A stretch of DNA of 41,034 nt from Candidatus Pacearchaeota archaeon (lineage in GTDB: Bacteria; Patescibacteriota; Minisyncoccia; Minisyncoccales; GCA-002788555). The translations under genes and the position numbers were made by a program. The stretch spans positions 1 through 41,034 of the forward strand of contig DAOPTN010000002.1 of the NCBI GenBank assembly GCA_035349995.1, written 5' to 3'. Within the stretch, counting starts at the first letter, position 1; the number at the start of each line of letters is the position of its first letter. Positions 3,207 through 26,033 of the stretch are shown here, piece by piece. Under the pieces are notes generated by a model. It was not told the origin of the DNA. It saw only the letters and a program-made list of their open reading frames with translations, and did not search any database.

Positions 3207-3767
3207 TTAAGAACCTTGAATCTCTTTCTCTTTTTTTTCTTCTATCTCTTCTATCTTTTTTTCATAATCATTGATTAATTCTTGAAGATCGTTTTTTTGT
3301 CTGAATTTTTCATCTTCAGGTATTTCACCTTTCCTTTCCATTTCTTGAATTTTTTTCCAGGATTCCTCACGTGTTTGCCTTAAAGCTACCTTCGCTTTTT
3401 CCATTTTCTGTCTTACCAGTTTTATCATTTTTTCTTTGTCCTCAGCGCTTTGCATAGGAAGAGAAAAAAATATTTTTTCTCCTTCGTTTCTTACACTTCC
3501 TCCAAGATTAGAGGCCTGAAGCGCTTTTTCAATATTGGGAATAGAAGATTTATCCCAAGGTTCAATAGAAATAGTTCGAGCATCAAGTAGAGAAAGCGAA
3601 GCAACTTCTCGAAGGGTAATTTTTTCTCCATAATACTCAACCAAAATTCCATCAATCAACTCAATAGACACTCTTCCTCCCCTGATTATTAATACTTCTT
3701 TTTTGAACCAATCAAGAGTTTTTTCAAAAGAATCTTTTGTATTTTTAAATAATTGATTTGTGTCCAT
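3207..3767 (-). CDS. frr: Ribosome recycling factor
   Basis: 186 aa. Typical Frr blocks are present (RGGRVSIELID.I.VEYYG, ISIEPWD, NLGGSVRNEG, PMQSAEDKEKMIK). Confidence 0.95.
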   Translation of the reverse strand: MDTNQLFKNTKDSFEKTLDWFKKEVLIIRGGRVSIELIDGILVEYYGEKITLREVASLSLLDARTISIEPWDKSSIPNIEKALQASNLGGSVRNEGEKIFFSLPMQSAEDKEKMIKLVRQKMEKAKVALRQTREESWKKIQEMERKGEIPEDEKFRQKNDLQELINDYEKKIEEIEEKKEKEIQGS

Positions 3768-3792
3768 ATTTTTATAATAATTATTTTATTAA

Positions 3793-4935
3793 TTAAAATG
3801 TTTTTTTAACAGAAAGTAAAATAGTATCAGGATCTGCGGGATTAATTTTTATTTTTTCAATCATTCCCCTGGTTGGTGGTTCAATTACTTGCCAATTTTC
3901 TCCATCGTTCTCTGAAAGATAAATCAGATTTCCCATTCCCACATATAATATATTAGAATTTTTTGGGTCAACTGTAAAGGCAGTAATTTTATTTTTTTCT
4001 GACGATGAAACTATCTTCACCAGGTCCATTTCGTTTCGGCTTATTCTAAAAAGATAATAATCTGATATAAGATAGATTCGATTCTGAGAAGGATCAGTAA
4101 TAATATCTTTGATTTCAGGCAATTCACCAATTTCATTTTCTACTTTAGAGGTATCAATTTCTTCTTTGATTAATTTGAAGGTTTCTCCACTATCCACACT
4201 AATTTCTATTTTGCTGGGAAGTCCGTTGGAATAAACATTAAAAGGGTCTCGAGCAATGGCTGATAATAAAATATAAATTTCTCCTGATTGATGAGGATTA
4301 AGCACAATTTTTTCTATGGGTTGAGAAAATTTATATGTTTCTTTCCAAGAATTGCCAAAATCCTCGCTTTTTAAAAAAGATCCTTGTTTCGTTCCTAAAT
4401 AAAGACGATTAGAAAAAAGAAGGTGTCTGGAATAAAACGGATCAATAGCAAATGTTTTTATTTTATCATCATTGCTGGCAATAAAAAGGGGGTGGAAATC
4501 CGCCCCCTTGTTATAAGAAACCAATAGTTTATTTTGACCGACTTCTTCAGAAACAAGATAAAACACATTAGGATTTCGAGGATCAGTGGTAAGATTTGAA
4601 ACAACGGCTGGCTGGCTTTCAGTTTTAAATGTAGTTGTTTTTGCTGTAAATTTTTCTCCTTTGGTTGAACTTTCAAAAACTCCCTTTGCCGAAGCAAGAT
4701 AAAGATTTTGAGAATTTTTAGGATCAAAAACAAGATTTTCAATGCTTGCTTTCTTGTCAGCTTTATCAATAGATTTCAAAGCAACCCATTCTTCTCCCCT
4801 GTCCTCAGAGAGAAAAAGTTGCTCGCCCATGGAAACTTCAACACCGTAATTATTTTCTAAAAAGTTAAAAACACCTATAAAACAAAGATAGGCAACAAAA
4901 AAACTAATTAGTGCTAATCCAAGTTGTTGAAACAT
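3793..4935 (-). CDS. Membrane-anchored BNR/Asp-box repeat (beta-propeller-like) protein
   Basis: N-terminal hydrophobic helix, then repeated SxDxGxxW/F Asp-boxes (SEDRGEEW, SEDFGNSW, SVDSGETF, SENDGENW). ATG at 4935 preferred over the TTG at 4950. Confidence 0.7.
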   Translation of the reverse strand: MFQQLGLALISFFVAYLCFIGVFNFLENNYGVEVSMGEQLFLSEDRGEEWVALKSIDKADKKASIENLVFDPKNSQNLYLASAKGVFESSTKGEKFTAKTTTFKTESQPAVVSNLTTDPRNPNVFYLVSEEVGQNKLLVSYNKGADFHPLFIASNDDKIKTFAIDPFYSRHLLFSNRLYLGTKQGSFLKSEDFGNSWKETYKFSQPIEKIVLNPHQSGEIYILLSAIARDPFNVYSNGLPSKIEISVDSGETFKLIKEEIDTSKVENEIGELPEIKDIITDPSQNRIYLISDYYLFRISRNEMDLVKIVSSSEKNKITAFTVDPKNSNILYVGMGNLIYLSENDGENWQVIEPPTRGMIEKIKINPADPDTILLSVKKTF

Positions 4936-4945
4936 AATAAAAAAA

Positions 4946-4959
4946 ATCAAAAATCAAAA
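4946..4959 (-). repeat. Two TTTTGAT heptads (minus strand) 11-24 nt upstream of the ATG at 4935
   Basis: Plus strand reads atcaaaa atcaaaa. Confidence 0.65.
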
Positions 4960-4979
4960 GAATTTTAAAAATTAATACT

Positions 4980-5999
4980 TTATATGCCGAGCAAAAGGTT
5001 TTCCATTGCTAAAAGCGGATTGGTATTAGAAAAATAAAGGTAATTTTTTGTTTCTTTTATCTTGAAAATAATTTCTTTTAATTTTATTTCAGAAAAATTT
5101 TCTTTTTCCTCTTCCAATTCTTTTTCCTTTGAAAAAAATGAAGGATAGAAAGATGAGAGACCTTGTTTTCTTAAAAGTAAATCTCGAAACCAAAATTCTG
5201 TTAAGAAAAGAAAATCTTGAGTTCTTTCGGTCTTTTCAAGATCTTCAGCTAGCTTTAATCGTTGAAGAATAGACAAATTTCTTATTTTTTTTATCTCCCC
5301 TAATAATAAATTATAATATATTATTTTGTTTTTGTCAATGAGAAATTCTTTGGCAAGGCCTGGCCTGCCCAAGACAAGACCTATTATTTCCTCTTTTTCT
5401 TTTTGATCTGGTTGGTTCTTTAAAAATGCTTCCATTTCAATTCGTGAAAGCGGATAAAATTTAAACATTTCTACTCGGGAAAGGATGGTAGTGGGCAAAT
5501 AATTAGGAGAAGAAGTTAAAAGAAAAAAAATGGTATTGCCCCGGGGCTCCTCAAGTATTTTAAGAAGCGATCCTGTAGCTTCTTCTGTTAATGATTCACT
5601 GTGGTCAATAATAACAATTTTAAATGGATATGGCGAAGAAAGAGAGATTTGCTGTTTAATATCTCTAATTTTTTTAATATGAATTTGGCGATCTTTGACA
5701 AAATTATTATCCTTGACAGAAGATTTTTTTTCTTTTTTTTCCTTGTCTATTGTTATTAGGTCATAAAAATTTTTCTCTTCTATCTGTTTACAAATATCAC
5801 AAGAACAATTGCCCTGAGAAAACTCAAAAAAATTATCAAAAGACGAAGAATGGTCTGTTTCTAAATATTTTGCAATTTCAAGAGCAATTTTTCTTTTACC
5901 AATTTTTTCTGGACCAGCAAATAAAACGGCATGGGGAAACCGATTTTCTGCTATCATTTTAGAAAAAATCTTTAGATTTTTTTGGTGACCAAAGATCAT
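4980..5999 (-). CDS. holB: DNA polymerase III delta-prime subunit
   Basis: HAVLFAGPEKIGKRKIA P-loop-like motif, a Cys-rich zinc module (GNCSCDICKQI) and the IIDHSESLTEEATGSLLKILEEP block. Confidence 0.85.
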   Translation of the reverse strand: MIFGHQKNLKIFSKMIAENRFPHAVLFAGPEKIGKRKIALEIAKYLETDHSSSFDNFFEFSQGNCSCDICKQIEEKNFYDLITIDKEKKEKKSSVKDNNFVKDRQIHIKKIRDIKQQISLSSPYPFKIVIIDHSESLTEEATGSLLKILEEPRGNTIFFLLTSSPNYLPTTILSRVEMFKFYPLSRIEMEAFLKNQPDQKEKEEIIGLVLGRPGLAKEFLIDKNKIIYYNLLLGEIKKIRNLSILQRLKLAEDLEKTERTQDFLFLTEFWFRDLLLRKQGLSSFYPSFFSKEKELEEEKENFSEIKLKEIIFKIKETKNYLYFSNTNPLLAMENLLLGI

Positions 6000-6005
6000 A
6001 TTTAA

Positions 6006-6033
6006 ATTATAAATGATTTTTAAAAAATTTCAA
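6006..6033 (-). promoter_or_regulatory. Sigma-70-type promoter of holB (TTGAAA-16-TATAAT) with only 6 nt between the -10 box and the ATG. Predicted leaderless mRNA.
   Basis: The minus strand reads ttgaaa ttttttaaaaatcatt tataat ttaaat ATG. Confidence 0.55.
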
Positions 6034-6075
6034 AATAAAAATAAAAGTTAGGTTCAAAAATTTAATGCAATATTT

Positions 6076-6126
6076 ACAAATAATAAAACACCAAACAGAA
6101 ATCAGTTGTCAGAAAACAGAAAACAG
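6076..6126 (+). repeat. Left copy of an approximately 50-bp inverted repeat (partner at 14835-14884)
   Basis: Hand alignment against the reverse complement of 14835-14884 gives 46 matches, 4 mismatches and 1 indel over 51 columns. It includes a 19-nt perfect core, agaaatcagttgtcagaaa. Confidence 0.85.
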
Positions 6127-6176
6127 TAGAGAAAATAGAAATCAGAAAACAGATTTTCTCTTATTATTTCTTATAT

Positions 6177-6420
6177 TGTCATCGCGACCCCTCACCACTG
6201 TCATCGCGAGCGAGGTCAAAGACCGAGCGTGGCGATCCCAGGGTATTGCCTCGGGATTGCTTCGTCGCTATCGCTCCTCGCAAAGACAATAAGGGGGACG
6301 AAACTGCTGCACTTCGCTGCGGCTCGTGTCAAAGACAGGCTCTTTTTTGTCATCGCGAGGAGTCCCTCACCTTAGTAAAAGGTGAGTGGACGACGTGGCG
6401 ATCTCGATGCATTGTTGCGT
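6177..6420. repeat. GC-rich structured repeat island (REP-like units)
   Basis: Sampled lines run about 55-63% GC against about 30% background. tgtcatcgcga occurs 3 times (6177, 6199, 6348) and cgtggcgatc twice. 6274-6289 pairs with 6347-6362 (14 of 16 positions). There is an 8-bp hairpin at 6366-6386. Confidence 0.8.
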
Positions 6421-6522
6421 TAAAAATTTGAAACTAAATAAGATCAGGGATTGCTTGCCTTATTTTCTTAGTTTTTTGAAGAGATTTTAGTTAATTCAGA
6501 AACATTGTAGCCCAGTTAAAAT

Positions 6523-6551
6523 TTGACAAAATGCAAAATTTTGAGTATTCT
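6523..6551 (+). promoter_or_regulatory. Sigma-70-type promoter (TTGACA-17-TATTCT) 11 nt upstream of the ATG at 6563. Near-leaderless.
   Basis: ttgaca at 6523-6528, a 17-nt spacer, tattct at 6546-6551. Confidence 0.55.
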
Positions 6552-6562
6552 AAAGAATAAAT

Positions 6563-7594
6563 ATGTTTAATATTAATGATTGCAAACAAACAGTAGATGG
6601 AATTTTAAAAGAGATGCCAGATAGAACTCAAAAGGTATTATCGCGTCGGTTTGGCATTGGTCCTGAAAATAAATCAACAAATAGGTGTTGTGAAACCCTT
6701 GAAAGCATTGGAAAAGATTTTGGCATTACCCGGGAACGAGTGAGGCAGATTGAAAATAGGGGGCTGGAAGAGTTCAAACGTTCTTCATACTTTGCTGATA
6801 TTCAGCGTTTTTTTCTTTTTCTTCGAAGTTTTATTGATGAGCAAGGTGGTTTAAAAAGACAGGATATACTGGAAAAAACCCTTGTACCAGAAGAACAATT
6901 AAGGCCTTATTTATTGTTTATTTTAAAAATTAGTAATTTGTTTTTATTTGAGCCAGAATCATCTTCTTTCTATTCTTCTTGGAAGACCAGAGAAGAGGTT
7001 TCTGATATTGCAGATAGGGTGGTGCGTTTTTTAATTGATTTAATGGAAAAAGAAAAAAGATTGTTTTCAGAAGAAGAATTATTAGAACGAGGCACAAAAG
7101 AAGTCCCAAAATACTTGCATCTTACTATTCCTACTAATCATTTGATTTCTTATATTGAAGCTACAAAAAAAATAAGAAAAGATCAATTTAATAATTATGG
7201 ACCGGTATGGTGGCCAGAAGTTAATCCAAGAGGAAACAGAGATTATGCTTATATGATTTTAAAAATTGAAAAAAAGCCTCTTCATTTTCGGGAAATAGCA
7301 AAAAAGATTGAAGAATCTTTTCAGAAACCCGTTCAAGCAGGCAGTTTGCATAATGAATTAATAAAAAATGATAAATTTGTTTTAGTGGGACGAGGAACCT
7401 ATGGATTAAAAGAGTGGGGTTATAAAAACGGAACTGTTAAGGATATTATTGAAGATATTTTAAAAGAAAACGGACCCTTAACAAGAAATGAGGTTTTGAA
7501 TGAAGTGCAAAAACAAAGAATGGTAAAAAGAGATACAATTCTTTTAAATCTATCAAATTTTAAAAAAACACCAGATGGAAAATACATATTATAA
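6563..7594 (+). CDS. DNA-binding protein with a sigma-70 region-4-like HTH and a C-terminal HARE-HTH-like winged helix
   Basis: ETLESIGKDFGITRERVRQIENRGLEEFK is a region-4 signature. HFREIAKKIEE...DKFVLVGRGTYGLKEWGY matches the HARE-HTH pattern seen in the RNAP delta subunit N-domain. No region-2 motif is visible. Confidence 0.7.
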   Translation: MFNINDCKQTVDGILKEMPDRTQKVLSRRFGIGPENKSTNRCCETLESIGKDFGITRERVRQIENRGLEEFKRSSYFADIQRFFLFLRSFIDEQGGLKRQDILEKTLVPEEQLRPYLLFILKISNLFLFEPESSSFYSSWKTREEVSDIADRVVRFLIDLMEKEKRLFSEEELLERGTKEVPKYLHLTIPTNHLISYIEATKKIRKDQFNNYGPVWWPEVNPRGNRDYAYMILKIEKKPLHFREIAKKIEESFQKPVQAGSLHNELIKNDKFVLVGRGTYGLKEWGYKNGTVKDIIEDILKENGPLTRNEVLNEVQKQRMVKRDTILLNLSNFKKTPDGKYIL

Positions 7595-7637
7595 TCAAAA
7601 ATTAAAAATCAAAAGTTTTGATTTTTGATTTTTGATT
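7594..7637. promoter_or_regulatory. Long AT-rich palindrome built of heptads, spanning from the stop codon of the 6563-7594 gene to the start codon at 7638
   Basis: Left arm aatcaaaaattaaaaatcaaaa, right arm ttttgatttttgatttttgatt. About 21 pairs with one G-U and almost no loop. The right arm is (TTTTGAT)x3. Confidence 0.7.
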
Positions 7638-8915
7638 ATGTCTCTTTATCTTGAAGAATTTTTAAATCTTTTATTATCTCTTTGGTGGTTATGGCTGGCA
7701 ATTTTGCTATTTCCCCTAGCAAAATATTTTTTTGTGTGGGCAAAAAAAGACCATTGGTTTGGATCTCTTAAATATAAAATGCTGGAAATCAAAATTCCAG
7801 AAGAAATAGAAAAAACCCCAAAAGCAATGGAAAATGTTTTTCATTCAATGTGGGGAATGTATGATCCTCCCTCCAACATTAGAGATTATTGGCTGGACGG
7901 AAAGGATATGCTTTATTACAGCTTTGAAATTGTTGGCAGACAAGACGAGGTTCATTTTTATATTATGGCGCCCAATACCCATGTTCAATTGGTAAAATCC
8001 TCTATATGGGCAGAATATCCAGAGGCGGAAATTAAGGAAGTAGAAGATTATATAAATAACTTTGGTAAAGAAGTGCCTAACGAGGATTATGATTTATGGG
8101 GTACAGATTTAAAATTGGCAAAACCAGATGCTTATCCCATTAGAACCTATGATTATTGGGAAACAGAATTAACAAAGGATGAAAAAAAAATTGATCCACT
8201 GGCCGCTCTTTTTGAGGCATTTGGCGATCTTAAAGAGGGAGAAGAAGTATGGGTTCAATTAAAAGTTGCACCTGTAACAGAAGATGAGCACCCCTATCTT
8301 GCAGAAAGTCAAAAAGTGATAAATAAGATAATGAAAAGACCTGAAACTAAGAAAAAAGGCATTTTAGCTCCCTTGGGTCTTTCAAGAATTCCTTCTGATG
8401 TGTGGACAGTTCTTATTGAAGGAAAACCTATTCCACCAGCAATGGAAGAAGAATTGCCAGATGGATTTGATATTGGATTAATGAAATTAAGTCCTGGTGA
8501 AGCAGAGGCCCTGCGAGCAATTGAAGATAATCTAGGAAAATATGTTTATGAAGGAAATGTTCGATTTTTATATATTGCCAAGCACGATATTATTTCAAAA
8601 CCAAGAGGAATAACAACAGTAATGTCTGCGTTTAATCAGTTTGCTACTGTTAATCTAAATTCTTTAAAACCAGACAGAAGTAAAACTTCAGTAATTCCAT
8701 GGTTTTTTGAGGGACGTCGTCTTTATGTTAAAAAGCGCCGTATTTTCAGATATTACACAGGAAGAGCTTGGCCCTGGCATCGATCACCTTATATTTTTTC
8801 TACAGCTGAACTAGCCACAATGTATCATTTCCCTGGAAAAGGAGTTGCGCCTTCAACCGCTGTTCCGCGAGTAGAGATAAAAAGAGGAGAAATACCACCC
8901 AACCTTCCTACTTAA
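7638..8915 (+). CDS. Uncharacterized membrane-anchored protein (N-terminal TM region plus a large soluble domain), partner of the downstream T4CP-like ATPase
   Basis: Long ORF with a hydrophobic N-terminus (LLLSLWWLWLAILLFPLAKYFFVWA). I recognise no catalytic motif. It lies 16 nt upstream of the ATPase gene. Confidence 0.75.
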   Translation: MSLYLEEFLNLLLSLWWLWLAILLFPLAKYFFVWAKKDHWFGSLKYKMLEIKIPEEIEKTPKAMENVFHSMWGMYDPPSNIRDYWLDGKDMLYYSFEIVGRQDEVHFYIMAPNTHVQLVKSSIWAEYPEAEIKEVEDYINNFGKEVPNEDYDLWGTDLKLAKPDAYPIRTYDYWETELTKDEKKIDPLAALFEAFGDLKEGEEVWVQLKVAPVTEDEHPYLAESQKVINKIMKRPETKKKGILAPLGLSRIPSDVWTVLIEGKPIPPAMEEELPDGFDIGLMKLSPGEAEALRAIEDNLGKYVYEGNVRFLYIAKHDIISKPRGITTVMSAFNQFATVNLNSLKPDRSKTSVIPWFFEGRRLYVKKRRIFRYYTGRAWPWHRSPYIFSTAELATMYHFPGKGVAPSTAVPRVEIKRGEIPPNLPT

Positions 8916-8931
8916 AAACTTTAAAAAAATT

Positions 8932-10359
8932 ATGGAAGAAAAAGAAAAAGTTGTTCATTTTGCTAAAACAGTTTATCATGACAGAGAAAAAGAATTTGGA
9001 ATTAAAACCGATGATAGACGGCGTCATATTTATATCGTAGGAAAAACTGGAATGGGAAAAAGCTGTCTTTTGGAGAATATGGCAATTCAGGATATTCAAA
9101 ATGGTCAAGGTGTTGGCATCGTTGATCCCCATGGAGAGTTAGCTGAAAAACTGCTTGATTTTGTACCGAAAAATAGAATCAATGATGTAATTTATTTTAA
9201 TCCAGCAGATCTTGATTATCCTATTGCTTTTAATGTAATGGAAAAAGTAGAATTTACTCACCGTCATTTGGTTTCAGCAGGACTTCTGGGTGTGTTTAAA
9301 AAAATTTGGCCCGATGTATGGAGCGCTCGAATGGAATATATTTTAAATAATACTATTTTATCTCTGCTTGAGGTACCAGGTACTACCCTGCTTGGAATAA
9401 ATAGAATGCTGTCAGATAAGGATTATAGAAAAATGATTGTTGATAGAATTACTGATCCTGCTATTAAATCATTCTGGATAAGAGAATTTGCTCAATATCC
9501 TCCTAAGTTTAGAGAAGAAGCCATTGCTCCTATTCAAAATAAAGTGGGTCAATTTATTTCTTCGCCAATGATTAGAAATATTGTTGGTCAAGTAAAGTCT
9601 ACTATTAATATGAGAGAAGTAATGGACGAGAAAAAAATTCTCATTTTAAATCTTTCTAAGGGTAGAATTGGCGAGGATCCTGCAAAATTATTGGGAGCAC
9701 TGTTGGTTACAAAACTTCAATTGGCGGCGATGTCACGAATTGATATACCAGAAGAAGAAAGAAAAGATTTCTTTTTATATGTAGATGAATTTCAAAATTT
9801 CGCCACTGAAGCGTTTGTAACCATTTTGTCTGAAGCAAGAAAATATCGGCTTTGTCTCACCCTTGCTCATCAATACATTGCACAAATGGAAGAAGTGGTA
9901 AGAGATGCAGTATTTGGTAATGTAGGCACTATTATTGCTTTTCGTGTCGGAGCCCCTGATGCTGAATTTTTAGAAAAAGAGTTTGAACCAGAGATTAATC
10001 TATATAATCTTGTTAATTTACCAAAATATAATATATATTTAAAATTAATGATAGATGGAGTTACGTCCCGGCCTTTTGCTGCGGTTACTCTTCCTCCCCT
10101 TCCAAAACCTGAAAAAAGTTACAAAGAAAAAATTATAAAATTGTCTCGAGAACGATATGGAACAGAAAGAGAAAAAGTTGAACAAAAAATTGCTCGATGG
10201 ATGGGAAATCAAGAAACAAAAAAGATTATTGAAAGAGAGAAAGAAGAGAAAAATCTACAAAAAAAAGAAATTTCTTTAAAAGAATTATCCAACCAAAAAC
10301 GAGAAGAACCTGATAAAAATAAATTAAAAAAAGCGTTAGAGGAAGCAAAGAAAAAATAA
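8932..10359 (+). CDS. Type IV coupling protein-like (VirD4/TraD/TraG, HerA-FtsK superfamily) P-loop ATPase, soluble form
   Basis: Walker A IVGKTGMGKS followed by VDPHGEL. Walker B FFLYVDEFQNF. Arginine-containing LAHQY block. Lys/Glu-rich C-terminal tail. No TM segment. Confidence 0.8.
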   Translation: MEEKEKVVHFAKTVYHDREKEFGIKTDDRRRHIYIVGKTGMGKSCLLENMAIQDIQNGQGVGIVDPHGELAEKLLDFVPKNRINDVIYFNPADLDYPIAFNVMEKVEFTHRHLVSAGLLGVFKKIWPDVWSARMEYILNNTILSLLEVPGTTLLGINRMLSDKDYRKMIVDRITDPAIKSFWIREFAQYPPKFREEAIAPIQNKVGQFISSPMIRNIVGQVKSTINMREVMDEKKILILNLSKGRIGEDPAKLLGALLVTKLQLAAMSRIDIPEEERKDFFLYVDEFQNFATEAFVTILSEARKYRLCLTLAHQYIAQMEEVVRDAVFGNVGTIIAFRVGAPDAEFLEKEFEPEINLYNLVNLPKYNIYLKLMIDGVTSRPFAAVTLPPLPKPEKSYKEKIIKLSRERYGTEREKVEQKIARWMGNQETKKIIEREKEEKNLQKKEISLKELSNQKREEPDKNKLKKALEEAKKK

Positions 10360-10379
10360 AAAGGATAATTATTGATAAT

Positions 10380-10871
10380 ATGTCTGATTATTTTCAAAGT
10401 CCTACTTATGGTAAAATGAGCCTTAATCAAGTTATTGATAGTTTGATCGATTTTATTTTAAAAAACCCTGATGATATTTATCAATTAATTGTGGGTACTG
10501 ATTCTGAGGGAAAAGAAGATCCTGAGTTTGTTACAGCGATTGTTTTGCATCGTAAAGGCAAAGGAGGACGATTTTTCTATCAAAGATCAAGAACTGGAAA
10601 GAAATACACTTTGCGAACTAGAATTTATGAAGAAACAATGAAATCTTTAACATTAGCAGTAAAATTAAGAGAATTATTGGAAAAACATTTACAAAAAAAT
10701 CATCCTCACAACTTAAAAGATCTTGAAATTCATACTGATATTGGGCAGGCAGGTGGCACGAGGGAAATGATTAAAGAAATAGTAGGAATGATAAAAGGAA
10801 ATGGTTTTGAAGTTAAAATTAAACCTGAATCATTCGGAGCAACTTCAGTAGCAGACCGTTGTTTGAGATAA
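10380..10871 (+). CDS. DUF458/YkuK family RNase H-like protein
   Basis: The YkuK-family pattern as I recall it: QSPTYGKMSLNQV, LIVGTDSEG, FVTAIVLHRKGKGGRFFY, EIHTDIGQAGGT, KIKPESFGATSVADR. Confidence 0.8.
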   Translation: MSDYFQSPTYGKMSLNQVIDSLIDFILKNPDDIYQLIVGTDSEGKEDPEFVTAIVLHRKGKGGRFFYQRSRTGKKYTLRTRIYEETMKSLTLAVKLRELLEKHLQKNHPHNLKDLEIHTDIGQAGGTREMIKEIVGMIKGNGFEVKIKPESFGATSVADRCLR

Positions 10872-10885
10872 ATATTAATTAATAT

Positions 10886-11377
10886 ATGAGATTTAATTTT
10901 TTTCAAAAAGATAAGCAATTGCCAGATCAAAAAGAAGTAATTTTTGAATGGAAAAATGATGTTAAAGAAGTTATTGATAAACGATGGCAAATAGGAATAA
11001 GTATTTTTTTAATTATTTGTTTTGTTTTTTTTATAATGGATAAAAATTATTGGGGAGCGGGAATGGTGATTGTTATTAGTTTTTTAATCTTTTTATTCCC
11101 TTATTATCAAAAAGAACAGTCATTTGCTATTTTGAAAAACGGCATTAAAATAGGAAATGAGGTGTTTCCTTGGGATTATCTTGAAAGTTTTTGGATAATC
11201 GAAGAAGAACCATTTGAAATTTACATCAAACATAAAAGAAACTTTCCAGGCAATATTATTCTCCCCTTTAATAAAAAAGATGTTAATAAAATTAAACATA
11301 TTCTTTCAGGTTATTTGCCAGAACAAGAAATTAAAAGAAATTTTATTGATAAAGTTTTTAGAAAAATCGGATTGTAA
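10886..11377 (+). CDS. Small membrane protein, two TM helices plus a C-terminal bPH-like domain (tentative)
   Basis: Two adjacent hydrophobic helices (ISIFLIICFVFFI, MVIVISFLIFLF) followed by a roughly 90-aa soluble tail. Operonic spacing. Confidence 0.6.
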   Translation: MRFNFFQKDKQLPDQKEVIFEWKNDVKEVIDKRWQIGISIFLIICFVFFIMDKNYWGAGMVIVISFLIFLFPYYQKEQSFAILKNGIKIGNEVFPWDYLESFWIIEEEPFEIYIKHKRNFPGNIILPFNKKDVNKIKHILSGYLPEQEIKRNFIDKVFRKIGL

Positions 11378-11380
11378 AAT

Positions 11381-11452
11381 GCCCTCGTAGTTTAACGGAT
11401 AGAACAGGGGCTTGCGGAGCCTCAAATAGGGGTTCGATTCCTCTCGAGGGCA
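11381..11452 (+). tRNA. tRNA-Arg, anticodon GCG
   Basis: Hand-folded cloverleaf. Acceptor GCCCTCG/CGAGGGC, D stem GTTT/GAAC, anticodon stem GGGGC/GCCTC, loop TT-GCG-GA (U33, G37), T arm AGGGG-TTCGATT-CCTCT, discriminator A. CCA is not encoded. Confidence 0.85.
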
Positions 11453-11459
11453 AAATTAA

Positions 11460-11488
11460 ATGATAGGATAATTCCCTATCATTTTTTA
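11460..11488 (+). terminator. Rho-independent terminator after tRNA-Arg
   Basis: atgatagg-ataattc-cctatcat followed by ttttt. Confidence 0.7.
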
Positions 11489-19186: not shown

Positions 19187-19987
19187 TTAATATCTTATAA
19201 GAGTGCCAATTGGTTCACCTTTAAGACATTTTTTTAAATTACCTTTTTTTCCACCTATTATGCAAACCTCAACGCCTTCTTTTGCAATTTCAACTGATTC
19301 TTCTACTTTGTGCAACATACCACCTGTCACATCAATTTTATCAGCCCCTTTTAAAAAATTTTTTATTTTAGAAAAATTATCTTTGTTTATTTCTGGAATT
19401 ATTTTTTTATTGCTATCGTAAACACCATCAACCTTGCTCATCATTATAATTTTTTTAGGTTTTAATTTTTTTGCCAAGAAATTAAAAAGTGCTTCTGTGG
19501 ATAATATTGTGCAACCTTTTTTTATATCAATTACTACATCTCCATAAATTACTGGAATCATATCATATTTTAAGTAATATTTAAGGGGCTCCAAATAATA
19601 ACTTTTTATTGTATTGTTATCTGTTAAAAATACTGACGATGGCTGTATGGAAATGGCATTTTCACCAGCCCTTATTAACTCTTCTATCAAAATTCTATTT
19701 AATTTAGCAGCATCATTTTCAACAATACTTATTCCTCGAATACTTTTTTTATTTACTATCCCCTCTTTTGTTTTATATTTTTTGGCTGATATATGAGGAA
19801 ATGATCCCCCGCCGTTGCCCAATAATAATTGAAAATTCATTTTCTGCCTTAATTGATAAATTTCTTTTGCAATTTCTTTTATTTTTAAAAGATGAGGCGT
19901 ATAAGGTTTAGGGGTTGTAATTAAAGCTCCGCCCAATTTCAAAAAAATGAGGTTATTTGAATCATCATTTTTTTTATATGTTTTCAT
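19187..19987 (-). CDS. Isopentenyl phosphate kinase family (amino acid kinase fold) protein
   Basis: LKLGGALIT, GNGGGSFPH, SIQPSS, PVIYGDVVID and DVTGGM match archaeal IPK blocks as I recall them for MJ0044. ATG at 19987 forms an ATGA overlap with the pyrF stop. Confidence 0.75.
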   Translation of the reverse strand: MKTYKKNDDSNNLIFLKLGGALITTPKPYTPHLLKIKEIAKEIYQLRQKMNFQLLLGNGGGSFPHISAKKYKTKEGIVNKKSIRGISIVENDAAKLNRILIEELIRAGENAISIQPSSVFLTDNNTIKSYYLEPLKYYLKYDMIPVIYGDVVIDIKKGCTILSTEALFNFLAKKLKPKKIIMMSKVDGVYDSNKKIIPEINKDNFSKIKNFLKGADKIDVTGGMLHKVEESVEIAKEGVEVCIIGGKKGNLKKCLKGEPIGTLIRY

Positions 19988-20883
19988 ATTTGAAAAGCAC
20001 AAGAAAGATCTTTTTTCATTTTTATTGTTGCCTCTCGAGCTGCCATATCGAATTTTTGTGGACCAAATTTCTCTTTATAAGGACTGCTTTGCCATGCAAA
20101 TATAATTTCACGTGAGTTGTTAATAATTGCTCCTTTTTGATTCTTATCAAAGTTGACCATAACATCTTTGGCACTGCCACCCTGCGCCCCATATCCTGGT
20201 ACTAAAAAAATACTCTTTGGCATTATTTTTCTTAAAATCATTGCTTCTTTTTTGTAGGTGGCTCCTACAACCGCACCAACGACTTGATAACCATTTTTTC
20301 CCTTTGTTCCTCTTCCCCATTGATTTACCATTTTTGCTACTTCTTCATATAACCGTTTTCCATTTTTAAGTATCTTGTCTTGAAAATCTTTTGAAGAAGG
20401 ATTTGAAGTTTTAACTAAAATAAAAACACCTTTTCCATATTTAATAGCTTTTTCAATAAAGGGATTTATTCCATCACTGCCTAAATATGGATTAACAGTA
20501 ATTGCATCAGCATCAAATCCTTCTTTTGTAAGATAGGCATCAGCATAGGCATCAGCCGTAGGACCAATATCATTTCTTTTACCATCTATAATAATAATTT
20601 TTTGTTTTTTTCTTAAATAAAAAATTGTGTTTTCCAGGGCTTTAATGCCTCTTTCTTTATATTTTTCGTAAAAAGCCATTTGTATCTTGAAAACCGGAAC
20701 AATATCACAAGTGGCATCAATGATCATTTTATTAAAATTAAATAATATTTTGTCTATCTTTTCTTCTTTTTTTCTTAAAAAATAAGGAATACCTTCGATT
20801 CTTGGATCAAGACCAATGCAGGTTGGGTTTTTAAATACATTTATTTTATCAAGTAATTTATCAGCAAAATTTTCTTTTCCCAT
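19984..20883 (-). CDS. pyrF: Orotidine 5'-phosphate decarboxylase, type 2
   Basis: CIGLDP motif near the N-terminus, ADAITVNPYLG and VPGYGAQGG blocks. About 300 aa, the long form. Confidence 0.85.
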   Translation of the reverse strand: MGKENFADKLLDKINVFKNPTCIGLDPRIEGIPYFLRKKEEKIDKILFNFNKMIIDATCDIVPVFKIQMAFYEKYKERGIKALENTIFYLRKKQKIIIIDGKRNDIGPTADAYADAYLTKEGFDADAITVNPYLGSDGINPFIEKAIKYGKGVFILVKTSNPSSKDFQDKILKNGKRLYEEVAKMVNQWGRGTKGKNGYQVVGAVVGATYKKEAMILRKIMPKSIFLVPGYGAQGGSAKDVMVNFDKNQKGAIINNSREIIFAWQSSPYKEKFGPQKFDMAAREATIKMKKDLSCAFQI

Positions 20884-20894
20884 AATTGATCATT

Positions 20895-21593
20895 TTAATT
20901 AAGCAATTTTAATTTTTCAATGCCGTATTGTTGAAATTCTTCTTCTACTTTTTGAGCAATTTCTTTTGAGGGATTGTTTTTTTGACAGGCAAGAAATAAA
21001 AGTTCAGGTAGTTTTGACATTTGAAAATAAGGAACACCTTTTTCTTCAACCGACTCTTTTACACTTTTTCCATCAAGCCCCTTTTCCATTCGATTGGTTA
21101 GTCCAATTGCAGCAATAATACTTGCTTCTTTTATTTTTTTAATAGTGTTGATGCTTTCAAGGAGCGAATAGCCAGTGGTAGTTACATCTTCAAGTATGAT
21201 TACTTTTCCTTTGGGAACACCAATAAAAAATCTGTCTTTTTCATCGCCATGATCCTTAGGTTTTCCTCTACCCATTGCAAGAATATGAGAAAAAGGACCA
21301 TAAAAAGGAGATTTTTTTGCCCATTTATACTGAACCAGAATAGCTAATTTTGTTGCCCCTTCTGGTACGCCATAAAAACAATCTGGTTGAAGATTTTTAT
21401 CTTTTACAAAATCAATAACAAAATCTGTTAATCTATCCATTAAAAAAACATCATTGCTTACATTTCGCCAATTAACATAACAATGAGATTTTCTTCCTGA
21501 TTTAAGAGTAATGGGCTGTTGAAAAAAACCAATGACATTATTTTCTATAATAAATTGATTAAATTTTTGTTGGTTGAATTTCTTATTACTCAT
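20895..21593 (-). CDS. pyrE: Orotate phosphoribosyltransferase
   Basis: ITLKSGRKSHCYVNWR, similar to the OPRT F.L.SGR.S.YY block. PRPP-binding loop VIILEDVTTTGYS. Confidence 0.8.
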   Translation of the reverse strand: MSNKKFNQQKFNQFIIENNVIGFFQQPITLKSGRKSHCYVNWRNVSNDVFLMDRLTDFVIDFVKDKNLQPDCFYGVPEGATKLAILVQYKWAKKSPFYGPFSHILAMGRGKPKDHGDEKDRFFIGVPKGKVIILEDVTTTGYSLLESINTIKKIKEASIIAAIGLTNRMEKGLDGKSVKESVEEKGVPYFQMSKLPELLFLACQKNNPSKEIAQKVEEEFQQYGIEKLKLLN

Positions 21594-22516
21594 AAGTGCT
21601 TTTTTATTTCAGATGTAAGATCTATAATCTCTAGATTTTTCATTAATTTATTACTGCAATCATTTATAGGAACAGAATTAGAAAAAAATATTTTAAAAAA
21701 ATTTGCTTTTTCTAGTTTTTCCTTAGCGTTTCCTGACAACACTGGATGTACAGCAGCCAATATTATTTTTTTTGCTCCCATTAAAATTAATTTTTCCTTT
21801 GCTTTAATAATTGTACCTCCTGTGTCTACCATATCATCAAACAAAATCACATTTTTTCCTTTAATGTTACCATAAAAATTAAGAGAAGAAACCATATTTA
21901 TTTTTTTATCAGGGCTCTCTCTTTCTTTTTTAAAAAAAGCGGTCTCAAGACCACCTAGTATTTGGGCAAATTTTTGTCCGTCTTTTCTTGCCCCTTCGTC
22001 TGGAGATACTACTTGCCAATCTCTTTGTTTTTTAATAATTTTTTTCAATTCTTTTGCAAATAAATGATAAACCTTAAGATTTAAAATAGGAATTTTATAA
22101 AATTTTAAAATTAACTCACTATGAAGATGACAGGTAATAATCTTGCCTATCCCTGCTGTTTCATATAAACGAGCTAATAATTTGGCAGAAATGGGTTCTC
22201 TTTTGTCCTTAGTAGTTTTTTTATCTTGTCTTGAATACAAAAGCAGTGGAGAAATCAAAATAATCTTTTTCGCACCGTTTTCTTTTGCAGCGTTTGCCAT
22301 TAAAAGGGTTTCCATTATTATCTCATCAGGATTCTCGTTCGCTGTTTGATAAATATAAACTATTTTTCCCTTTACATCATTCAATAATTGAATATATTTT
22401 TCACCACAAGCAAATTTTTGAATTAAAATATTACCAAAATGAATATGAGATGCTTTGGCTATTTTTTCAGCCATTTTGTCAAAATTAGAAGATCCTGCAA
22501 ATAAAATTTTCTCCAT
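21590..22516 (-). CDS. prs: Ribose-phosphate pyrophosphokinase
   Basis: Two PRT-type domains, VVSPDEGA, ILFDDMVDTGGT. ATGA overlap with pyrE. Confidence 0.85.
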   Translation of the reverse strand: MEKILFAGSSNFDKMAEKIAKASHIHFGNILIQKFACGEKYIQLLNDVKGKIVYIYQTANENPDEIIMETLLMANAAKENGAKKIILISPLLLYSRQDKKTTKDKREPISAKLLARLYETAGIGKIITCHLHSELILKFYKIPILNLKVYHLFAKELKKIIKKQRDWQVVSPDEGARKDGQKFAQILGGLETAFFKKERESPDKKINMVSSLNFYGNIKGKNVILFDDMVDTGGTIIKAKEKLILMGAKKIILAAVHPVLSGNAKEKLEKANFFKIFFSNSVPINDCSNKLMKNLEIIDLTSEIKKHL

Positions 22517-25072: not shown

Positions 25073-26029
25073 CTATTGAGTAAGGCATTGATTAAAATTA
25101 TTCACCTGTAAATTATAACGAGAAATTAAATCTTCCACTTCTTGGGTAAGATTATTAAATTCTATAATCGATTGATTATATTTTTGTATTTTCAAATTGA
25201 TTTTATCGTTTAACTCTTTTAACCTCTGATTAGCAGCCTCAATTTCTTCATTTATTACTAAATCCTTACCTTGATTATACACCATTTCTTGTTCTTTTTT
25301 AAGGCTCTCTATTTCATCTTCTAAAAGATTTATTTCATTTTGAAGATTATCTAATTCTTTTTCTTTCTCCTTAATGCTTTTTTTAAGTTCTTCGTCAGGT
25401 AATGGACATTTTGATAAAGGAGTAGCAAAAATTTGAACTGCTAAAAAAGTTTTTTCACCATCAAAAATGCCTCGATCGGCAGCAATACCAATTTCTTTGA
25501 ATTTTGAATTTAAAATATTTTCTCTATGGCCCTGACTTGCCATCCAAGCATCAACTAAATCTTTTTCATCTTTAAAATTTCCAAGAGCAAGATTTTCACC
25601 TACCATTAAATATTTATAAGAAAGCCCCTCAACAATATCAGCTGCGCCTATGCCTTCTGGTGAAATATGCTCAAAATATTGTTTTTCAAACATATCTTTT
25701 ATTTTTTGCTGAGCAGCTTGATTTAAAATTTCATTTTCTGTAAGTTCTTGAACATTGTTATTTATTCTGTAAAAATTAGTCCAGAATAAAATTTTTTCTT
25801 TTTCTAGTGCATCAATTTCATTTTGTTTTTCTGATAAAATTAAAGGGGTAGGTAAAATAACCTCTCTTATTGTTAATAACGGATTTTCTATTTTATCTTG
25901 ATTCACATCTTGATTGTTGTTTTGCTGTTCTGTCTGGTTTCTATTTTCAAAATCAAAGACAAAAATAATTAAAATTGCAATCAAAATAAAAAAAATACTC
26001 CATTTAATCTTTTTTGATTTATTTTGCAT
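25073..26029 (-). CDS. Membrane-anchored CAP/SCP (YkwD-like) domain protein with C-terminal coiled coil
   Basis: N-terminal TM helix, CAP-type block AWMASQGHRENILNSKFKEIGIA, then a heptad-rich EKELDNLQNEINLLEDEIESLKKE tail. ATG at 26029 preferred over the TTG at 26044. Confidence 0.75.
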   Translation of the reverse strand: MQNKSKKIKWSIFFILIAILIIFVFDFENRNQTEQQNNNQDVNQDKIENPLLTIREVILPTPLILSEKQNEIDALEKEKILFWTNFYRINNNVQELTENEILNQAAQQKIKDMFEKQYFEHISPEGIGAADIVEGLSYKYLMVGENLALGNFKDEKDLVDAWMASQGHRENILNSKFKEIGIAADRGIFDGEKTFLAVQIFATPLSKCPLPDEELKKSIKEKEKELDNLQNEINLLEDEIESLKKEQEMVYNQGKDLVINEEIEAANQRLKELNDKINLKIQKYNQSIIEFNNLTQEVEDLISRYNLQVNNFNQCLTQ

Positions 26030-26033
26030 AAAG

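Follow-up and report, generated by a model that had tools for sequence, protein, structure and literature searches.

The window analyzed here is a 41-kb stretch (41,034 nucleotides) of contig DAOPTN010000002.1 in assembly GCA_035349995.1, which carries the label Candidatus Pacearchaeota archaeon and is placed in the Patescibacteria. It contains a cluster of five plus-strand open reading frames (ORFs), separated by intervals of 43, 16, 20, and 14 nt. The first three genes encode a predicted DNA-binding protein that combines a sigma-70 region 4 domain with a HARE-HTH winged helix (sigma4/HARE-HTH), a predicted membrane subunit of the DUF8128 family (PF26449), and a soluble ATPase of the VirD4 type. 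These three genes, in this order, are the core unit, which is tightly spaced, vertically inherited, and chromosomal and lies in a housekeeping context, whereas the remaining genes of the cluster are passengers of the lineage. Sequence comparisons further indicate that the DUF8128 protein and the ATPase together correspond to a single type of protein, which is split into adjacent genes in Patescibacteria and occurs as a single polypeptide on Bacillaceae plasmids and in phages.

Conservation of the three-gene core

A pattern scan identified DUF8128 in at least 585 species-representative genomes, all of which are labelled Patescibacteria. The carriers include Paceibacterota; the Nealson-, Yanofsky-, Wildermuth-, Terry-, Azam-, Lipton-, Portnoy-, Moranii-, Magasanik-, Komeili-, and Gribaldo-bacteria; and the cultured Minisyncoccus archaeiphilus. 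Gene neighborhoods were compared in the 80 best Patescibacteria loci, taken from species representatives with 6 kb of flank on either side, and adjacency was counted in the 76 loci with sufficient flank. The sigma4/HARE-HTH gene lies directly 5' of the DUF8128 gene in 74 of these 76 loci (median gap, 21.5 nt), and the ATPase gene lies directly 3' of it in 70 (median gap, 21 nt); at one locus outside the 80-locus set, obtained by protein look-up, the DUF8128 and ATPase genes overlap by 4 nt. Loci without an adjacent ATPase or sigma4 gene have unrelated housekeeping genes in that place (those encoding YceG, G5/DPBB, Fic, and amine oxidase). The trio remains intact where the flanks differ between species. 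Genes on its 3' side vary and include those for PGK, a DHH-family protein, RNase HI, EF-P, and MnmA. On the 5' side, 52 of 67 loci have secD-secF immediately before the trio, in the same orientation, and at least 18 have secA in front of these (sec genes lie, for example, at positions 3748 to 4686 of locus L026 and 86 to 1540 of locus L082). The median gap between SecF and sigma4, 62 nt, is looser than the spacing within the trio, and secD, secF, and secA were not found in the window itself, although the trio there is intact. No relaxase, type IV secretion system (T4SS), integrase, or defense context was found in the window or within 6 kb of the 80 related loci.

The chromosome of Minisyncoccus archaeiphilus PMX.108 carries a variant of the operon (L054, positions 7366 to 10860) in which the gene for a 1,164-aa protein is inserted between the DUF8128 and ATPase genes. 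The inserted protein combines a prepilin-type N-terminal methylation motif with a Gly_rich_2 domain and a weakly FGE-sulfatase-like C terminus, and the order in this organism is SecD-SecF-sigma4/HARE-DUF8128-[insert]-ATPase with zinc finger.

The genes that follow the ATPase in the window encode a DUF458 protein and a DUF5673 protein with two hydrophobic segments (residues 32 to 56 and 54 to 75), and a tRNA-Arg gene begins 2 to 3 nt past the last stop codon (Table 1). Of the 80 loci, just those of the two closest relatives (L005 and L006) have DUF458 and DUF5673 3' of the ATPase; the other 78 lack them in that place. The tRNA-Arg lies 3' of DUF5673 in L005 alone, about 150 nt downstream, and the contig of L006 stops just past DUF5673. 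Because all three are confined to the two closest of the 80 loci, they are lineage passengers that stand outside the core. In a distant species, a DUF458 homologue with 38 to 39% identity to the window protein is encoded about 5 kb 5' of the trio, before secD (L075, positions 867 to 1346).

The layout given in a preliminary description of this DNA was confirmed: the positions of the five same-strand ORFs, their intervals, the tRNA-Arg, and the hairpin terminator agree with the ORF listing, ARAGORN, and a hairpin scan. The YkuK/DUF458 identity proposed for the fourth protein is solid, and the fifth indeed has two hydrophobic segments and falls into DUF5673. The same description had treated the first gene as regulator-like and placed it just outside the range; its adjacency is real, but with 74 of 76 loci and both DNA-binding domains it is the third invariant component. 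Conservation of the neighborhood in related genomes, which had been raised as a check, was found for the DUF8128-ATPase order and extends to the upstream sigma4 gene, but the DUF458/DUF5673/tRNA part does not share it, and the supposed nuclease of the module thus drops out. The further check, whether the locus sits inside an integrative or conjugative element, turned up no mobile-element genes in the window or in the flanks of its relatives.

Table 1. Features of the operon region in the window (positions count from the first nucleotide of the window)
Feature	Position	Strand	Properties
Promoter candidate, sigma-70-like	6523..6551	+	TTGACA, 17 nt, TATTCT; 10 of 12 consensus matches; 12 nt 5' of first gene
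Core gene 1, 343-aa soluble predicted DNA-binding protein	6563..7594	+	Sigma70_r4, residues ~7-77; HARE-HTH winged helix, residues 228-285
Core gene 2, 425-aa DUF8128 (PF26449) predicted membrane subunit	7638..8915	+	N-terminal hydrophobic helix, alpha/beta domains, conserved C-terminal tail; alternative TTG start at 7632
Core gene 3, 475-aa soluble VirD4/TrwB-type ATPase	8932..10359	+	Walker A GKTGMGKS (residues 37-44), DPHGEL (65-70), Walker B LYVDEFQ (282-288); helical insertion ~108-232
Lineage-specific passenger, 163-aa DUF458/YkuK RNase H-like protein	10380..10871	+	PF04308, E = 1.3e-47
Lineage-specific passenger, 163-aa two-transmembrane-segment DUF5673 protein	10886..11377	+	PF18923, E = 2.1e-6
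tRNA-Arg (anticodon GCG)	11380..11453	+	ARAGORN; Rfam RF00005, 62 bits
Terminator-like hairpin	11458..11484	+	10-bp stem, 7-nt loop, then T-run; best in region

The core proteins and their fused relatives

The ATPase contains Walker A, DPHGEL, and Walker B motifs whose key residues do not vary among 31 orthologues, and more than 150 positions are invariant across its orthologues; no hydrophobic segment was found in it. It scores above the Pfam gathering cut-offs of families of type IV coupling proteins (T4CPs), namely, TrwB_AAD_bind (40.7 bits; cut-off, 20.5), T4SS-DNA_transf (29.7; cut-off, 20.1), and TraG-D_C (29.3; cut-off, 22), as well as that of DUF87. All of the T4CP equivalogs in NCBIfam were far under their cut-offs, the best being TIGR03743 (41.6 bits versus 366), and the CD1115 family reached 29.1 bits versus 250. 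An AlphaFold model of moderate confidence (pLDDT, 73.7) ranked closest by Foldseek to DotL (E = 2.7e-8), TrwB (TM-score, 0.51 to 0.57; root mean square deviation of ~5 Å over ~440 columns), and Cagbeta, followed by HerA, and it places helices at residues 108 to 232 between Walker A and Walker B, as in the all-alpha insertion in the nucleotide-binding domain of T4CPs. There were no VirB4 or FtsK chains among the 39 fold matches listed at an E value of 0.012 or below. The Pfam search gave no AAA_10 or CagE_TrbE_VirB hit, and neither an FtsK_SpoIIIE hit nor a gamma domain was found with Pfam and NCBIfam. When the ATPase was compared by hhalign with TrsE and with a Bacillus AAA_10 protein, only the P-loop aligned, whereas the VirD4-like TraK of pSK41 aligned with the ATPase profile, weakly, across the whole nucleotide-binding domain. 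Since the fold is closest to DotL, TrwB, and Cagbeta, the VirB4 comparisons align the P-loop only, and TraK aligns across the nucleotide-binding domain, the motor is of the VirD4 type. This agrees with the preliminary description, which had pointed out the same three motifs and had read the protein as a coupling-protein-type motor without an anchor of its own.

A C-terminal treble-clef zinc finger of the form CxxC-x17-CxxC (PF23477) is present in 44 of 66 motors; the motor of the window (at 10190 to 10359) and those of its nearest relatives have a K/E-rich tail in its place. In PADLOC, the ATPase matched mad8 (E = 3.3e-16) and, weakly, HerA. Under an E value of 1e-3, the other four operon proteins gave no PADLOC match except one of the sigma domain to MzaA, and no other MADS component was found.

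The 425-aa protein encoded immediately upstream has one hydrophobic segment, at about residues 7 to 35, and a conserved C-terminal tail with the motif ELATxYHFPG...KKGEPPxxLP. The protein itself had no match in local copies of Pfam, NCBIfam, and PADLOC, and its assignment comes from more than 900 homologue clusters, nearly all of which are tagged PF26449. An exhaustive search with a DUF8128 profile returned 3,809 clusters at 50% identity, and the top 150 representatives are all standalone proteins of 360 to 550 aa. An AF2 (AlphaFold2) model (pLDDT, 82.9; pTM, 0.80) matched 13 TrwK/VirB4 chains of the R388 T4SS in the PDB at E values below 1e-3 (best, 7e-6), with TM-scores of just 0.33 to 0.38 and no other significant match, and in BFVD it matched gp156 of Bacillus phage G (E = 7e-18). 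It also matches gp155, a VirB4-like protein of the same phage, over more columns than the ATPase domain of gp155 holds. Because DUF8128 has no P-loop, because its model matched no other P-loop ATPase in the PDB, and because the gp155 match exceeds the ATPase domain of that protein, the likeness is tentatively read as one to the N-terminal domain of VirB4. No match was obtained when PDB sequences were searched with the DUF8128 profile. The profile and Foldseek searches that the preliminary description had suggested for this protein thus led to DUF8128, to the TrwK/VirB4 chains, and to phage G gp156; the hydrophobic N terminus noted there stands, while its statement that nothing could be recognized in the remainder does not, as the homologues define a family and the predicted fold resembles only VirB4 in the PDB.

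Fused proteins provide the link between the two genes. In phage G gp156 (825 aa), residues 15 to 318 match the DUF8128 profile in hhalign (98.3% probability; E = 2.5e-14), and residues 381 to 764 match the window ATPase in BLASTP over ~390 residues (E = 5e-45). An 885-aa protein of small Bacillus and Shouchella plasmids, annotated as a DUF87 domain protein, matches DUF8128 at residues 54 to 303 (hhalign, 98.3%; E = 2e-14) and the window ATPase at residues 331 to 721 (BLASTP, E = 1e-40). The third example is phrog_5156, a phage family of unknown function, in which positions 27 to 213 of 824 match DUF8128 (E = 1.2e-10) and positions 407 to 823 match the ATPase (E = 6.2e-63). Searches with tblastn from DUF8128 to the fused relatives gave E values of 6e-5 to 4e-6. 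Because the N- and C-terminal parts of gp156, phrog_5156, and the Bacillaceae plasmid proteins match DUF8128 and the ATPase in order, the two Patescibacteria proteins are best described, from these alignments, as the separated halves of one protein type. Together with the adjacency at 70 of 76 loci, this correspondence bears out the earlier suggestion that the upstream membrane protein is the partner of the ATPase.

The fused proteins (gp156, phrog_5156, and the ~885- to 913-aa Bacillaceae plasmid proteins) have the same two halves in the same order and are the closest sequence relatives outside Patescibacteria. They differ in being single polypeptides borne by mobile elements, without an N-terminal hydrophobic helix and without a sigma4/HARE-HTH neighbor, whereas the Patescibacteria form comprises two genes. 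Because this helix is lacking in the fused proteins, the membrane anchor looks like an addition made in the split form of Patescibacteria.

On the Bacillaceae plasmids, the gene for the fusion heads a transfer operon and is followed by genes for Replic_Relax, TcpC, TcpE, and an AAA_10 VirB4. The usual place of the coupling protein is beside the relaxase (2025 T4SS nomenclature review), and the fusion holds the coupling-protein slot of a Tcp-like T4SS on these plasmids. The fusion type was also considered as the T4CP of pLS20 and was rejected, as gene 48 of pLS20 is a canonical VirD4 with two transmembrane segments. About 20 Bacillaceae plasmids (among them L087, L088, and L090, from Bacillus subtilis and Shouchella clausii; NZ_CP154917.1, NZ_CP012476.1, and NZ_OX419568.1) are classed as "non-mobilizable" by MOB-suite and nonetheless bear a complete-looking Tcp-like transfer operon with the fusion, Replic_Relax, TcpC, TcpE, and AAA_10 VirB4 genes. 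They may represent an overlooked family of conjugative plasmids in which both the coupling protein and the relaxase are unclassified, and the fusions suggest that a coupling-protein subtype has gone unrecognized on plasmids to which typing tools give the non-mobilizable label despite the Tcp-like operon. In the jumbo Bacillus phage G (L085, positions 3258 to 7400), the VirB4-like gp155 (P-loop_TraG, AAA_10) lies beside the fusion gp156, and in phage D6E (L086, positions 4797 to 7055) ORF23 encodes a related 752-aa protein near a partition gene and an integrase gene.

The first protein of the trio matches Sigma70_r4 (E = 4.5e-11) and HARE-HTH (E = 2.4e-11) in Pfam, and all 24 of the orthologues compared have both domains. 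A profile built from the orthologues matches region 4 of primary sigma factors in the PDB (E ~ 1e-18). The sigma4 motif TRERVRQIE, which we take to be the region 4.2 helix of sigma-70 that reads the -35 element, is invariant. Region 2 of sigma-70 was not found with Pfam, NCBIfam, or the ortholog profile, and every sigma-factor equivalog in NCBIfam was far under cut-off. In contrast to sigma factors of the sigma-70 family, this protein has region 4 alone, and the remainder consists of HARE-HTH and unassigned sequence. A relationship with the Replic_Relax protein of the plasmid operons, of which the sigma4/HARE-HTH protein might have been a diverged form, was rejected, as the two show no similarity.

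Coupling proteins fall into two families, VirD4 and TcpA, in the 2025 T4SS nomenclature review. The ATPase described here is like the VirD4 T4CPs (TrwB of R388, DotL, and Cagbeta) in its fold, its Pfam families, its Walker motifs, and the helical insertion between them. It differs in having no transmembrane domain in its own polypeptide, the anchor being a separate DUF8128 protein with a VirB4-like predicted fold, and it is chromosomal, near-universal, and highly conserved, without relaxase or T4SS genes nearby. VirB4 (TrwK) has a non-ATPase N-terminal domain followed by a motor, an order that DUF8128 and the ATPase mirror, and the DUF8128 model matches TrwK chains; the motor, by contrast, is VirD4-like, with P-loop-only alignment to VirB4 proteins and no AAA_10 domain. 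The adjacent TrsD and TrsE genes of pSK41/pGO1 are a precedent for a split of this kind, although DUF8128 has no profile similarity to TrsD. FtsK/SpoIIIE and the soluble SftA belong to the same ATPase superfamily and are likewise chromosomal housekeeping genes, and they share with the trio, as a functional analogy, the logic of a tether, a ring motor, and an HTH DNA reader. The trio has no FtsK_SpoIIIE domain, however, its fold is nearer to that of TrwB and DotL, and its DNA reader is a separate sigma4/HARE-HTH protein rather than a gamma domain. Similarity to HerA systems (HerA-NurA, Sir2-HerA, DUF4297-HerA, and MADS mad8) lies in the DUF87/HerA ATPase, without a conserved nuclease partner, as DUF458 is missing at 78 of 80 loci.

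Orphan coupling-protein genes in this phylum have been reported. A survey of 3,035 Patescibacteria genomes found 5,713 VirD4-like T4CP homologues in 2,918 of them (96%), only 148 of which are near virB4, and found VirB4 in 2,417 genomes (80%), with almost no relaxases and with chromosomal relaxase-less T4SSs being widespread (Quinonero-Coronel et al. 2025; PMC12102498). In S. epibionticum, the T4CP homologue was dispensable whereas T4SS genes were essential, and the authors concluded that exaptation cannot be ruled out (PMC12102498). These orphan T4CPs are almost certainly the same gene population as the ATPase of the trio. The partner membrane protein, the split and fused forms, and the sigma4/HARE-HTH neighbor are not described in that survey; no paper mentioning DUF8128 was found within the searchable literature, and the Minisyncoccus papers contain nothing on the trio. 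As far as could be searched, the DUF8128 partner, the split/fusion relationship, and the third component therefore appear to be new.

Proposed function of the trio

The core trio is most readily interpreted as a split, chromosomally fixed coupling-protein module that handles DNA at the membrane, most economically for a chromosomal T4SS in trans; confidence in this proposal stands at about the midpoint. DUF8128 would sit in the membrane through its N-terminal helix and would hold the soluble motor through a surface and tail that correspond to the covalent linker in the fused relatives. The motor would assemble into a ring like those of TrwB and DotL and use ATP to move or hand over a nucleic acid substrate at the membrane, with the sigma4/HARE-HTH protein, plus the zinc finger of the motor in most species, selecting or loading DNA. 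The destination would be the relaxase-less chromosomal T4SS encoded elsewhere in most Patescibacteria, for which the motor would act as coupling protein in trans. The T4SS destination is slightly favored because the nearest relatives of the trio are coupling proteins in real transfer operons. The analysis shows the homologies, the split and fused forms, the conservation, the context, and the intact ATPase motifs; the physical complex, the hexameric motor, the DNA substrate, and the T4SS link are inferred. Patescibacteria make up a large and poorly understood part of bacterial diversity, and few of their genes have been demonstrated to be indispensable for epibiotic life; T4SS genes are among these few. 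The proposal gives the orphan ATPase a context, in that the membrane subunit would be its missing N-terminal half and an invariant sigma4/HARE-HTH partner stands beside them. With relatives in the coupling-protein slot of conjugation operons and three named proteins, the role of the orphan can be put to experimental test.

Several observations weigh against a coupling protein that serves a T4SS. T4CP homologues occur in 96% of genomes and VirB4 in 80%, and in S. epibionticum the T4CP homologue, which may not be an orthologue of the motor of the trio, is nonessential while the T4SS genes are essential; each of these findings speaks against an obligatory tie to the T4SS. The motor is more conserved than is usual for conjugative T4CPs: its median identity to the window copy is 64%, compared with 36% for each partner, 45% for RecG (two comparisons), and 54% for LeuRS (one comparison), although the comparisons with RecG and LeuRS are few. 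The resemblance of the DUF8128 model to VirB4 is weak (TM-score, 0.33 to 0.38), and the DUF8128 profile showed no similarity to the N-terminal domains of two VirB4 proteins, phage G gp155 and a Bacillus plasmid VirB4; a tie at the sequence level was therefore rejected, and the likeness is one of predicted structure. DUF8128 was also rejected as a TrsD homologue, with an hhalign probability of 0.2% against TrsD of pSK41, a weak negative given the single-sequence template. Finally, the sigma4/HARE-HTH protein could be merely a co-located transcription factor.

Some of the same observations would fit an autonomous, T4SS-independent translocase of the FtsK/SpoIIIE kind in three pieces, with DUF8128 as anchor, the ATPase as ring, and the sigma4/HARE-HTH protein as reader, acting on the organism's own chromosome at division or in DNA exchange with the host. 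The excess of T4CP homologues over VirB4, their rarity near virB4, and the dispensability of the one tested where the T4SS is essential all accord with such a machine, as do the strong conservation of the motor (64% median identity; more than 150 invariant positions), the strictly housekeeping, syntenic context, the invariant DNA-binding domains of the partner, and the significant structural match to HerA. The fold, however, is nearest to VirD4-type proteins rather than to FtsK, with no FtsK_SpoIIIE hit in Pfam, and the nearest sequence relatives are in conjugation operons, so that this explanation is possible but on present evidence doubtful. The more specific version, a self-sufficient FtsK-like DNA pump whose sigma4/HARE-HTH protein reads a -35-like sequence in an essential step of chromosome handling or host DNA exchange in Paceibacteria-type Patescibacteria, is likewise tentative. 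If true, the trio would be a third, unrecognized functional lineage of the VirB4/VirD4/FtsK radiation, either domesticated from or ancestral to a coupling protein of Firmicutes plasmids and phages.

VirD4-type proteins recruit protein substrates as well as DNA. The trio might accordingly handle proteins or pilins at the membrane, as a coupling protein for T4SS effectors or as a VirB4-like dislocase tied to Sec export. The position of secD-secF directly 5' of the trio in 52 of 67 loci, with secA in at least 18, the prepilin-type (N_methyl), glycine-rich 1,164-aa insert of Minisyncoccus archaeiphilus, and the resemblance of the DUF8128 model to the VirB4 N-terminal domain would suit such a role. 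Yet the window has an intact trio without secDF or secA, the gaps between SecF and sigma4 are looser (median, 62 nt), and the location of secDF beside recombination and repair genes may be old synteny; moreover, the invariant partner is a DNA-binding protein, and the pilin insertion occurs in one genome only. A protein- or pilin-handling ATPase is for these reasons unlikely.

The preliminary description had envisaged a translocase with the DUF458 nuclease for DNA uptake and processing or, alternatively, an anti-mobile-element system, which would now be one of the HerA/mad8 type. The DUF458 RNase H-fold protein does lie directly 3' of the ATPase in the window, and both the mad8 match (E = 3.3e-16, with weak HerA hits) and the structural matches to HerA defense complexes point in that direction. 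However, DUF458 and DUF5673 accompany the ATPase in only the two closest of 80 loci, no nuclease partner is conserved, and a near-universal, single-locus housekeeping synteny is unlike that of defense islands, which makes the anti-mobile-element role, and this explanation as a whole, very improbable. A defense system was separately rejected on the PADLOC results, which gave a mad8/HerA-type ATPase match with no system context.

Least credible of all is the view that the trio is what is left of a conjugative element or prophage that integrated and then decayed: the nearest relatives outside Patescibacteria are on plasmids and phages, and an origin in monoderm conjugation systems has been proposed for the VirB4 of the phylum, but the trio keeps the same position and gene order in dozens of species despite 30 to 40% protein divergence, its ATPase motifs are intact and invariant, no integrase, relaxase, or repeats were found, and the composition is unremarkable. 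Domestication of such an element in the distant past would agree with the coupling-protein explanation.

Other features of the window

The rest of the window consists of housekeeping genes, including those for a clamp-loader subunit, RecG, LeuRS, a Clp-type AAA+ protein, GlmS, RtcB, and MurG, and, among others, PRPP synthetase, OMP decarboxylase, and M48 and S41 peptidases; the base composition is even along its length. VirB4, VirB6, relaxase, pilin, integrase, and replication-initiator genes were not found among 25 ORFs scanned with Pfam and two flanking genes compared with the PDB, with ~11 smaller ORFs lying outside the scan. In keeping with these scans and with the absence of a mobile-element context, the earlier view that this is not a conventional conjugation or T4SS locus still holds.

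For the promoter candidate 5' of the first gene, the evidence is agreement with the consensus alone, and 41 promoter-like sites were found in the AT-rich region against 28 expected. Because the region holds no excess of terminator-like sites (4 found versus 4.5 expected), it is the spacing of the genes that suggests that the five ORFs share one transcript.

The long intergenic region between the divergent clamp-loader gene (4980 to 5999) and the first gene of the operon contains a GC-rich island at 6170 to 6420, with 50 to 59% GC against a background of ~30%. The island has three direct copies of TTGTCATCGCGA as well as inverted partners (6274 to 6292 versus 6344 to 6362), and the TTGTCATCGCGA motif occurs 4 times against 0.49 expected. 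Its predicted RNA fold has a free energy of -109 kcal/mol (z = -5.0 versus shuffles), and no Rfam match was obtained for the intergenic region even at E values up to 1. Possible identities for the island are a structured RNA and a palindromic repeat element, and it probably accounts for the small ORFs at 6065 to 6431, which would then be artifacts.

Genes of pyrimidine and nucleotide metabolism, encoding an amino-acid-kinase-family protein, OMP decarboxylase, and PRPP synthetase, lie on the minus strand at 19187 to 22516; the preliminary description had assumed a nucleotide auxotroph. Also on the minus strand are genes for a Sortilin/BNR-repeat protein (3793 to 4950) and a CAP (cysteine-rich secretory) domain protein (25073 to 26044), which may be surface or secreted proteins of an episymbiont.

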